From contig JANOPP010000243.1 of the NCBI GenBank assembly GCA_031421915.1, forward strand, positions 1 through 10,233: 10,233 nucleotides of DNA. The letters are read 5' to 3'. The notes below the pieces were generated by a model. That model saw only the letters and a program-made list of their open reading frames with translations. It ran no database searches and had not been told where the DNA came from. The position numbers were made by a program, and so were the translations under genes. Within the stretch, counting starts at the first letter, position 1. Each line of letters starts with the position of its first letter. Shown here one piece after another: positions 6,617 through 8,401 of this stretch. This DNA comes from Myxococcales bacterium (lineage in GTDB: Bacteria > Myxococcota_A > Polyangia > Haliangiales > Haliangiaceae).

Positions 6617-7648
6617 ATGGCAGTGGCGGCTCGTACCCCAGGCCCCTCGGAAGCGCGCGTCCCGTGTCCGCTCTGTGGAGGCCTCGTGCATCCCATCGCG
6701 GGCCGCTGCAAGCACTGCAAGGCGGACATCGCTGCGTCGCGCAGTTCGCGGCCGGCCGCGATGGCTGCCCTGCCCTCGCTGGCGGCCGGCGGCATGCCGC
6801 CTCTCGTGATCGATCCCCCGGCGGCAATCCTCGGCAACGGGGACACGAGCGGCCCGGTGCAGAGTGCCTACGCACCAAACCTCGCCGCGACGATCGTCTC
6901 GCCTTCGCCGGTCATCGCGATCGCGAACCCGTATCACGACGAGTCGCGCCCGATCCTCCCACCGCGCCCGACCGGTCGGATGCAGACCGAGCCGACGCGA
7001 TCGATGTGGCGCAACTGGCCGGTCATCGTGATCGTGCTCGCCGTGCTCGCGATCGCCGCCGCGGTAGTCCTGATGCTGTGGCCGCCCGCGGGTGAAGCGA
7101 AGGCCGACGGCAAGAAGCTCGCACCGCCCCCCGCACCCGAGCGGATGGACACCAATCCGATGCCACCACGTGATCCGGGCGCGGGCGTGACGCCCAGTGG
7201 CCCCTCCGATCCGTGGAGCAACCGCGGTGGCGTGACACCGCCGCCCGACGACCCCGACGACATCGATCCACCCGACGTGCTCGCCGATCCATTCGCGAAC
7301 CCGGGCGGTGGCAATCCCGGTCTCCAGCCGTTCGGAACGAACCCGTTCGCCGGCGCCGCCGGTGGCGGAGCCCTCGTGTTCGCGATGATCACGCGCGCGT
7401 GTGATCGGATGAAGCAGTGCCCCGGGTCGGGCGTCGCGGACATGTGCTCGGCGCTGCAGACCTCGCTCGGTGCGTTCCCGATGCCGCCCCCGCCCGCGAG
7501 CTGCGTCGCCGCCCAGCGCTGCCTGTCGCAGATCGACAAGCTCGACCTGTGCGGGAGCACGACCTCGAGCCCGCTCGGCGGCGGCCTCGCCGACGTCACG
7601 ATGCTGCTCAGCACCGCGCAGGATTGCATCGACGCTGCGCGCTGCTGA
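6617..7648 (+). CDS. Zinc-ribbon membrane protein with a Pro-rich linker and Cys-rich C-terminal domain (hypothetical)
   Basis: The N-terminus has a C4 zinc ribbon (CPLCGG-x10-CKHC). A single TM helix follows (WPVIVIVLAVLAIAAAVVLMLW). Then a ~110-aa Pro/Gly/Asp-rich low-complexity linker. Then a C-terminal domain with 8 Cys ending CIDAARC. Coding GC3 is high. It is divergent from the phosphoesterase gene, with a ~104-bp shared upstream region. Confidence 0.7.
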   Translation: MAVAARTPGPSEARVPCPLCGGLVHPIAGRCKHCKADIAASRSSRPAAMAALPSLAAGGMPPLVIDPPAAILGNGDTSGPVQSAYAPNLAATIVSPSPVIAIANPYHDESRPILPPRPTGRMQTEPTRSMWRNWPVIVIVLAVLAIAAAVVLMLWPPAGEAKADGKKLAPPPAPERMDTNPMPPRDPGAGVTPSGPSDPWSNRGGVTPPPDDPDDIDPPDVLADPFANPGGGNPGLQPFGTNPFAGAAGGGALVFAMITRACDRMKQCPGSGVADMCSALQTSLGAFPMPPPPASCVAAQRCLSQIDKLDLCGSTTSSPLGGGLADVTMLLSTAQDCIDAARC

Positions 7649-7663
7649 GGTTGCCAAGCAACG

Positions 7664-8218
7664 TTAGTTTGCTGACGTCACGCAGCCCGTGACCTCGCCC
7701 GAGATCGCGGCGCCAGGCGCGGTCGTCGATCCGTCGTACGAGTAGAGGTCTCCGAGCACGAAGGTCGCGCGGTACGGAGAGAGCCCGATGACCTCGAACC
7801 TGCCCGAGCGCGCGATGAACCCGGTGCACTCGCCCGGTGACTGGCAGCTGGCGCTGGCCGCTCCGGTCAGGAACTTGACGTTCTCGAGCGCGACGTCGTG
7901 AACACCCAACGCAGCGAAGTCATCGGTCAGAACGTCGCGCGCTACCATCGAATAGGAACCCGCCGCGTTCGCCGTGAAGCCGCCGACGCCGACGATCCGG
8001 GTGGACACTTCTACGACCGCGGCCGACGGCGAGTCGAGCTCGTACACGCCAGAGAGGTGGATGCGTTCCCCAGCGCACGATGGATCGGTCGCGATGGGTC
8101 CGTCGGTGGTTGACGGCGCATCGGGCGTTCCGGACGCACCGCCGAGCGAATCGTCGTTGGCCGCACAGCCCGCGACAATGAGGGCCGTGAGGAAGGTGAA
8201 CGAGTGTAGCGGTTGCAT
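7664..8218 (-). CDS. Lipoprotein, hypothetical (184 aa)
   Basis: Track ORF 7664..8788. Its upstream 190 codons are Arg-rich antisense-type sequence. The ATG at 8218..8216 is preceded by GAGGGG, and translation begins MQPLHSFTFLTALIVAGCAAND (signal with LIVAGC lipobox). The mature protein is Ser/Thr/Gly/Asp-rich with 5 Cys. Codon usage has noticeably lower GC3 than neighbouring genes (cta, caa, att, gat, tca, gta, gaa, tat, ggt, gtt, taa stop). Confidence 0.7.
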   Translation of the reverse strand: MQPLHSFTFLTALIVAGCAANDDSLGGASGTPDAPSTTDGPIATDPSCAGERIHLSGVYELDSPSAAVVEVSTRIVGVGGFTANAAGSYSMVARDVLTDDFAALGVHDVALENVKFLTGAASASCQSPGECTGFIARSGRFEVIGLSPYRATFVLGDLYSYDGSTTAPGAAISGEVTGCVTSAN

Positions 8219-8329
8219 GGTGAGCCCCTCACCAACTTCCACGCCAACGCCGAAGATGTAGTTACGTGGGACTGCGGGTCGGCAGAATGGGGTTCGGCGC
8301 GGATCCACGACAGGCGCGTCGCGGTCTGG

Positions 8330-8377
8330 CTCGACACGTCGAACGCTCACGACTGTATCGACGCCGCACGCTGCTGA
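8330..8377 (+). pseudogene. Remnant of a gene 3' end that duplicates the C-terminus of the 6617..7648 product (…DCIDAARC*)
   Basis: The plus-strand frame ending at ~8375-8377 reads ...WLDTSNAHDCIDAARC*. The 6617..7648 product ends ...LLSTAQDCIDAARC*. About 30 nt align at ~85% identity (gacgctgcgcgctgctgag vs gacgccgcacgctgctgag). There is no ATG/GTG start, and the frame is open only back to a TAG at ~8207. Coordinates come from my own base counting and may be off by 1-2 nt. Confidence 0.3.
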
Positions 8378-8401
8378 GCGTCTCCGCGGTAGGCTGCGCG
8401 C

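Follow-up and report, generated by a model that had tools for sequence, protein, structure and literature searches.

The subject of this study is a 10,233-nt contig (JANOPP010000243.1; 68.9% GC) of a Myxococcales bacterium, hereafter called the window, in which a gene for a 184-aa lipoprotein (7664..8218, minus strand) lies between the gene for a 343-aa Cys-rich membrane protein (6617..7648, plus strand; hereafter the Cys gene) and panC, encoding pantoate-beta-alanine ligase (8402..9271, plus strand). The 3' end of the Cys gene is present twice, once on either side of the lipoprotein gene. We find that the lipoprotein gene was gained by a single, lineage-specific insertion of 0.7 kb into the Cys-panC junction, at which insert-free relatives hold only one copy of the repeated segment. 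The insert has since diverged together with its flanks and shows no recombinase or transposase signatures. In our judgment, this insertion probably left its target duplicated at both sides, and its junctions were remodeled later.

The repeat flanking the lipoprotein gene

An earlier sequence-only reading of this DNA, made without database searches, had proposed that the Cys gene end recurs ~730 bp downstream and that the two copies bracket a single lipoprotein gene on the opposite strand, both of which we confirm. The first copy, GAT TGC ATC GAC GCT GCG CGC TGC TGA, occupies positions 7622-7648, and the second, GAC TGT ATC GAC GCC GCA CGC TGC TGA, positions 8351-8377; being 729 nt apart, the copies share the same frame. 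The one gene between them is the lipoprotein gene at 7664-8218, recognized by its open reading frame (ORF) and its lipobox, LIVAGC. A direct repeat search delimited the pair to 35 nt (7615-7649 and 8344-8378) with 83% identity. With the inferred ancestral sequence as a reference, the homologous stretch of the right copy begins at 8342, giving 37 nt, of which 30 are identical between the copies (30/37). We refer to these copies as R1 (7613..7649, plus strand), which comprises the last ~11 codons of the Cys gene, its stop codon, and one further base, and R2 (8342..8378, plus strand), which is noncoding. Over the ~30 nt of the original description, identity is 25/30; the weaker similarity reported beyond it exists but reaches merely ~7 to 9 nt further, and upstream of 8342 the similarity between the copies is random.

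The frame of the second copy had been described as start-less, which is correct except for a TTG codon at 8213. The small ORF that this codon would open (8213-8377) was considered as a real gene and rejected: TTG is its only start, it is not conserved in the related locus L007, and it is not a conserved ORF because the substitutions between the window and L007 fall on all its codon positions.

On window-wide DNA statistics alone, the repeat is marginal. It is the top direct ungapped pair of the window, but narrowly so (score, 17 versus 16 for the runner-up), and at a mismatch score of -2 a score of 17 was reached in 1 of 40 triplet shuffles and 4 of 40 Markov-1 randomizations; at a mismatch score of -1, the score was reached in 2 of 40 sequences of either kind. 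Between the two flanks of the lipoprotein gene, in contrast, the repeat is clearly significant. With the comparison limited to 350-nt flanks, the score of 17 stood against a shuffle maximum of 12 (0/100), and a blastn-short comparison of the Cys gene end with the downstream 750 nt gave an E value of 1.5e-4. The significance of the repeat in a shuffle test, on which the earlier proposal had been made to depend, therefore holds in the flanks, whereas 2.5 to 10% of randomized sequences reach the score window-wide.

Insert-free relatives and the direction of change

The Cys protein has an N-terminal CxxC...CxxC motif, one transmembrane segment, a Pro-rich linker, and a Cys-rich C-terminal domain ending in ...DCIDAARC*. 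It has no Pfam match, and its gene was delimited by its ORF and by family synteny. We collected 397 homologs from metagenome-assembled genomes (MAGs) of Kofleriaceae/Myxococcales, and the family is widespread in Kofleriaceae/Haliangiales MAGs. Among family members P0001-P0120 the N-terminal motif reads CPxCG...CKHC, and the multi-Cys C-terminal domain has a Cys at its end. This terminal Cys is invariant in the family, either at the stop codon or one residue before it, while the exact ending DCIDAARC is confined to the close clade of the gene itself. A scan of species-representative genomes (Kofleriaceae/Haliangiales) yielded 80 loci, the large majority of which show the order metallophosphoesterase (minus strand), Cys gene (plus strand), panC (plus strand). 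In most species panC is the immediate downstream neighbor of the Cys gene, usually 20 to 150 nt from its stop codon in the loci that include panC (~50 of 80). None of the 80 loci carries the lipoprotein gene, and nearly all of the ~50 loci with panC have the Cys gene adjacent to it.

The closest relatives define the empty site. Their Cys proteins are 87% (L002), 84% (L003), 75% (L004/L005), and 74% (L006) identical to that of the window, and in all of them panC follows the Cys gene after 25 to 68 nt, without a lipoprotein gene. The junction in these relatives reads ...CAG GAT TGC ATC GAC GCC GCG CGC TGC TGA gag(g)gtctccgcggtaggctgcgc-GTG. In blastn comparisons one and the same 35-nt segment per relative (e.g., L002 1407-1441) matches both 7615-7649 and 8344-8378 of the window. 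R1 runs leftward from this segment into the Cys gene, and R2 runs rightward into the ancestral Cys-panC spacer, gcgtctccgcggtaggctgcgcgc (8379..8401, plus strand), which joins R2 to panC (Pfam PF02569, 7e-103; also supported by synteny) as it does in the insert-free relatives. Hence, L002, L003, L004/L005, and L006 hold a single copy at the same position. The lipoprotein gene is found at this locus only in the clade formed by the window, L007, and L094. The last locus came from a look-up of the 90% cluster to which the Cys protein belongs. Another locus, L001, has the same sequence as the window and comes from an independent Logan assembly; two metagenome scans for more haplotypes returned nothing new, and cluster look-ups yielded L094 only.

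The proposal that the repeat is the scar of an insertion is thus supported by the syntenic comparison: in the relatives the Cys gene stands directly before panC, the repeated segment occurs once, and the lipoprotein gene is missing from the junction. As an alternative, the same proposal had suggested recombination between duplicated ends. This is not supported, because the empty sites hold one copy and give no sign of preexisting duplicated ends that could have recombined.

Age of the insertion and of the two copies

L007 is the nearest relative, with 90.9% nucleotide identity over 3.3 kb, against 88% for L002/L003. Synonymous divergence (dS) between the window and L007 is 0.20 for the metallophosphoesterase gene, 0.17 for the Cys gene, 0.27 for the lipoprotein gene, and 0.21 for panC, and between the window and L002/L003 it is 0.34 to 0.39 (Cys gene and panC). 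Since the dS of the lipoprotein gene is like that of its flanks, the insert has codiverged with them. A single insertion therefore took place once the lineage had separated from L002/L003 and while the window and L007 still shared an ancestor. The ratio of nonsynonymous to synonymous divergence (dN/dS) of the lipoprotein gene, 0.21 for the window versus L007, indicates that the gene has been maintained by purifying selection.

R1 differs from the closest relatives by one synonymous change, GCC to GCT, whereas 6 positions of R2 have changed from the ancestral state. Neutral drift of 0.10 to 0.19 per site, corresponding to the dS values of 0.2 to 0.38, predicts 3.7 to 7 changes per 37 noncoding nt. 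The imperfection of the repeat fits an originally exact duplication of this age.

The inserted lipoprotein gene

The lipoprotein begins with the signal peptide MQPLHSFTFLTALIVAGC, which contains the lipobox, and has 4 further conserved Cys residues. The lipobox assignment holds across the family, Cys18 being invariant in two sets of 26 and 32 members. No Pfam match and no Foldseek match in the PDB were obtained for this protein, the predicted fold of which is all-beta. In a collection of 5.8 billion proteins it has a sole close homolog, 89% identical and encoded on L007, where the gene stands in the same place and orientation between the Cys gene and panC; L094 carries this gene as well. The family is rare: among 1.84 billion representatives it comprises 40 clusters at 50% identity, and at 90% it comprises 48 clusters. 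Its members occur in unrelated, nonconserved genomic contexts. The next homolog, P0123 on L008, is ~52 to 56% identical and is found in another genomic context. A mobile cassette bounded by repeats was considered and rejected, as no flanking repeats were found at other lipoprotein-family loci (L008, L009, L092, and L093) or at L007. Upstream of P0123, L008 shows an operator-like palindrome, TTATGAGAAAC-N6-GTTTCTCATAA, accompanied by a degenerate copy (~440-480 and 600-640).

The lipoprotein gene had also been singled out for its atypical codons. Its GC content at third codon positions (GC3) is indeed the lowest in the window, 0.82 versus 0.85 to 0.94 for the other genes (z about -2.3). However, the ortholog on L007 has a GC3 of 0.88, so the low value is not a robust signal of foreign DNA, and we rejected composition as proof of a foreign origin.

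The gene arrived together with its own upstream region, a putative promoter and 5' untranslated region (8219..8328), which is 89% identical to its counterpart in L007. This region is noncoding, as changes relative to L007 hit every codon position of its sole open frame. It is followed by a 13-nt filler (8329..8341) between the common insert core and R2 that is absent from L007. At the other end, spacer S1, gttgccaagcaacg (7650..7663), lies between the two convergent stop codons and consists of a small palindrome with a T-rich tail resembling a terminator. S1 bears no relation to the 33 nt that occupy the equivalent place in L094 and L007. Short-query blastn searches with the promoter region, positions 8300-8378 (filler and R2 included), and the S1/S2 spacer contexts gave no informative match among all fetched loci.

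A hairpin-prone gene end and junction variants in the sister haplotype

The end of the Cys gene (7607..7649, plus strand) is hairpin prone, as judged by an inverted repeat search and RNA folding. The arms, 7607-7621 and 7635-7649, form 15 bp with one mismatch around a 13-nt loop, and the 3' base of the hairpin coincides with the left insertion breakpoint, 7649/7650. The folding energy is -28.5 kcal/mol (z -2.5) for the window and -29.2 kcal/mol (z -3.0) for L002; the structure is not formed in L004. The functional gene ends of eight relatives are nearly invariant over GAT TGC ATC GAC GCY GCG CGC TGC, synonymous sites included. The last ~50 nt of the Cys gene may thus be under some additional constraint, for instance from the hairpin or from signals for panC.

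At the right junction, L007 equals the window minus exactly 50 nt, 8329-8378, i.e., the filler and R2. The insert core of L007 ends in ...cggtctgg and directly abuts ggtctccgcgg-panC. The left junction is preserved in L094, where it reads ...GAT TGC ATC GAC GCC GCG CGC TGC TGA g-cgcctccgcg-cgcgacggtgcgtttgcggaaga-tca, and here the left target copy extends 10 to 11 nt past that in the window. As a result, a direct repeat of ~10 nt (cgcctccgcg/ggtctccgcg) brackets the insert in L094/L007.

The left junction of L007 itself resembled an inverted target copy, from which we predicted a flipped 14-nt loop. L094, fetched after this prediction, shows exactly the predicted unflipped form. The loop, tgctgagcgcctcc, is enclosed by the 7-bp inverted repeats CGCGCGC/GCGCGCG and is present in both orientations (L007 2286-2313, minus strand; L094 3193-3220), which come from two metagenome samples. 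In the flipped form, the Cys protein loses its invariant terminal Cys and the stop codon and gains 19 residues that overlap the end of the lipoprotein gene. Template switching between short inverted repeats can invert the spacer, and such inversions have been described as a class of mutation (PMC8604942). Taken together, the position of the left breakpoint at the base of the hairpin and the loop flip between L007 and L094 argue that this site is prone to structure-driven rearrangement. An extended duplication in L007 was considered and rejected, as the similarity of its left spacer to the start of panC was not significant (260 of 500 shuffles).

Origin of the duplicated target

In the scenario that we favor, the ancestor would have had one Cys gene end ~25 nt upstream of panC. 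A fragment of ~0.7 kb carrying the lipoprotein gene and its upstream region would then have entered this junction in the common ancestor of the window and L007/L094. Joining would have duplicated the target, such that R1 kept the C terminus of the Cys protein intact and R2 kept the native sequence upstream of panC. Subsequently, R2, being untranslated, would have drifted, and selection would have kept the lipoprotein gene. The joining itself may have been illegitimate and have occurred at a hairpin-prone, GC-rich site, either by end joining of a staggered break or by microhomology-primed templated repair. The junctions would have been remodeled after the insertion; a later remodeling is suggested because the sister haplotype has the ~10-nt spacer duplication in place of R2. 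As judged by ORFs and Pfam, the insert encodes neither a recombinase nor a transposase, the lipoprotein gene being its one credible gene, and it has no terminal inverted repeats. From the anatomy of the junctions we infer illegitimate joining rather than site-specific recombination.

Several observations weigh against this scenario. A duplication of 37 to 48 nt far exceeds the 2 to 14 bp that are usual when DNA is transposed or ends are simply joined. In the sister haplotype the ~10-nt spacer repeat stands in the place of R2, and the spacer beside the lipoprotein stop codon is unrelated between the two junction types, so that at least two further events are required and R2 may have arisen only after the insertion. 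The comparison comprises only three haplotypes, with the nearest other lipoprotein homolog ~52 to 56% identical and in another context. Finally, 5 of the 6 changes in the formerly coding part of R2 hit what had been third codon positions (binomial P = 0.018), a bias that pure neutral drift does not predict, and the GAC and TGT variants are private to R2. Homologous recombination may have brought in the panC-side flank of an insert-free strain, or the excess may be due to chance.

Three histories are equal in the number of events: a duplication of ~48 nt followed by one loss per lineage, an origin of the window type, and an origin of the L094 type, in which a 10-nt duplication came first and 37 nt were later copied from a template into the right junction. 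Under all three, R2 derives from the insertion target by copying.

The last of these histories is the alternative that survives best, and we regard it as a real though distinctly less likely possibility. In this case the repeat would postdate the insertion. An insertion of the L094/L007 type with a target duplication of ~10 nt (g.ctccgcg) would have been followed, in the window lineage, by a break at the right junction and by templated repair, with the left junction serving as the template and priming occurring on the 10-nt repeat. About 37 nt of the Cys gene end would have been copied, and the gap would have been closed with the 13-nt filler. Consistent with this, the right junction of L007 is that of the window without precisely the 50 nt in question, the cgcctccgcg/ggtctccgcg repeat of L094/L007 has the length of a conventional target-site duplication, and the copied tract adjoins the 10-nt repeat, as templated repair would predict. 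Moreover, the filler at 8329-8341 has no other explanation. However, 6 changes in 37 nt are many for a copy made after the split between the window and L007, for which ~3.7 would be expected [P(≥6) = 0.17], and an independent second replacement of the left spacer would still be required, while the event count equals that of a single 48-nt duplication with one loss per lineage.

Alternatively, R1 and R2 could be the attL and attR sites of a site-specific element that targeted the Cys gene at its 3' end and carried a mimic of that end, as e14 does in icd; all of the element but the lipoprotein cargo, integrase included, would since have been deleted. Repeats of a gene 3' end around foreign DNA with the gene left intact are the classic signature of such elements (PMC6379469), the copies differ mostly synonymously, and their identity peaks at one end (10/10 in cgctgctgag), as an att core would. 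We nevertheless consider this origin improbable. ORF and Pfam analysis revealed no integrase, excisionase, or other tyrosine or serine recombinase in the insert or in the whole 10-kb window, and the insert measures a mere 0.7 kb. It is the gene-proximal copy that is ancestral-like (1 change in R1 versus 6 in R2), whereas the e14 model places the element-derived copy on the gene. Furthermore, the sister haplotype L007 has no attR, other occupied Cys-panC junctions (see below) do not repeat the gene end, and other lipoprotein-family loci lack flanking repeats.

A more speculative idea, to which we assign little probability, is that the insert was placed by a mechanism for which the Cys gene end, folded into a hairpin or cruciform, is the recognition site and which cuts the strands ~40 to 50 nt apart, at or near the hairpin bases. 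Gap filling after such a staggered cut would give an unusually long target duplication, the same logic as in Cas1/casposase-type integration, in which a whole repeat is duplicated. If so, the other genes, most of them for lipoproteins, that recurrently fill the Cys-panC spacer in other Kofleriaceae would mark a structure-targeted insertion hotspot and not mere tolerance.

The sequence-only reading had also offered that a paralogue of the Cys protein upstream of panC was largely deleted when the lipoprotein gene arrived, R2 being its remnant. R2 is in frame with a stop codon at its end, the frame upstream shows a periodicity of GC3 > GC1 > GC2 (0.79/0.64/0.53), and by eye there is a faint 'DCGS' likeness to the LDLCGS motif. 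Yet an hmmsearch with a profile of 120 family members against the six-frame translation of the insert returned only TSNAHDCIDAARC, the last 13 codons, with a score of about 0, and a full-length paralogue or second Cys-family gene upstream of panC was found in none of the 80 species loci. R2 has exactly the clade-specific DCIDAARC ending, its downstream flank is the ancestral spacer, and substitutions in the open frame relative to L007 fall on all codon positions, all of which makes a deleted paralogue very unlikely. Least credible of all is a chance match in GC-rich, coding-like sequence: the one-point lead of the pair window-wide and the randomized sequences that reach its score would allow for it, but it is contradicted by the flank tests (0/100 shuffles; E=1.5e-4), by the stop codon that ends both copies in the same frame, and by the empty-site alignments, in which the positional homology of R1 and R2 to one single-copy segment of the relatives rules chance out.

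Comparison with known systems

Target-site duplications are similar in that target repeats directly flank an insert, insert-free relatives have one copy, and the neighboring genes remain intact. They differ in length, 2 to 14 bp compared with 37 nt (possibly 48 nt originally) here. Transposon-type insertion is further set apart by what the present locus lacks, namely a transposase, terminal inverted repeats, and a second copy of the element, and by the insert ends, which differ between the window and the sister junctions of L007/L094. An 8-bp duplication beside the eutA stop codon at CPZ-55 has been described (PMC6379469).

Longer gene-end duplications are known from integrative elements: e14 or phage 21 in icd is accompanied by a 163-bp icd' pseudogene, and DLP12 at argU by 47 bp (PMC6379469). 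As in these cases, a gene 3' end stands on both sides of foreign DNA, the gene is functional, and a short pseudo-fragment has been displaced. Unlike in the e14/icd type, there is no integrase, the 0.7-kb insert holds one gene, the copy on the gene side is the one that resembles the ancestor, the sister haplotype does not have the repeat, and no reuse of the att-like sequence was seen at other occupied sites.

Templated or microhomology-primed repair and template switching between short inverted repeats (spacer inversion; PMC8604942) resemble the present case in the copying of nearby sequence, the short filler at the junction, and the position of the breakpoints at hairpin bases. In addition, the 14-nt loop between 7-bp inverted repeats occurs in both orientations here, in L007 versus L094. 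Junction anatomy is the only tie between this mechanism and the present event.

Integron cassettes likewise bring in a single gene of ~0.7 kb as a unit and have an imperfect palindrome at the 3' side. In contrast, the locus has no IntI, attI, or attC, the inserted gene has its own upstream region, and the flanks are a duplication of host coding sequence. We rejected a cassette, as inspection of 7640-7670 and 8320-8400 revealed no GTTRRRY/RYYYAAC pair and there is no integrase.

In our view, this locus represents ordinary genome evolution and not a new system, and it is novel only in how long the duplication is and in the way the joining took place. It does offer a clean natural case of a new gene wedged between two tightly linked, deeply conserved genes, neither of which is harmed, because the one piece that serves both as the coding end of the first gene and as the upstream region of the second is simply duplicated. 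In addition, one insertion junction from uncultured Myxococcota is represented by three dated haplotypes, among them a hairpin-loop flip by which the C terminus of a protein is rewritten. These haplotypes may be of use for a small case study on how illegitimate recombination and the remodeling of junctions proceed in GC-rich genomes.

Occupied junctions in other species and gene neighborhood

In several other Kofleriaceae the Cys-panC spacer is filled by unrelated genes (L045 3434-5902, L049 4401-6980, L047 4620-6358, L069 4554-4907, and L024). The occupant of L045 and L049 is a lipoprotein of 805 to 809 aa on the opposite strand, and other occupants include a 109-aa lipoprotein and a 254-aa ORF. 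In L033 a large ORF lies downstream of the Cys gene, and panC was not found within 3.5 kb. These sequences show the junction to be a recurrent insertion spot, without gene-end repeats. A general att-like hotspot was considered and rejected: genes stand between the Cys gene and panC in 6 to 8 other species, and as none of these junctions repeats its own Cys gene end, they provide no evidence for an att-type site.

The window opens with a gene resembling that of the major vault protein (891-3368, plus strand; Pfam MVP_shoulder, 4.6e-23; Vault_3, 1e-8; weak Band_7). This bacterial homolog of the eukaryotic major vault protein also heads the same neighborhood in L004 and is present as a partial ORF in L005. 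It is followed by genes for a Ser/Thr kinase, a small lipoprotein, a GST-like protein, and the metallophosphoesterase (minus strand), then by the Cys gene, the 184-aa lipoprotein gene (minus strand), and panC; the last gene, 3' of panC, is the start of a large CarboxypepD_reg/PDZ-type protein. The stop codon of the kinase gene overlaps, at 4514-4517, the TTG start of the small lipoprotein gene (4514-4870), which encodes a Cys-rich protein of 118 aa, and this overlap suggests translational coupling. The pair is also kept in L004/L005. Toxin-antitoxin pairs occur in the wider neighborhood of two related loci: one of the ParE type lies directly downstream of panC in L007 (L007 120-673), and one of the PemK type lies between two giant CarboxypepD_reg/PDZ proteins in L004 (L004 11084-11681).

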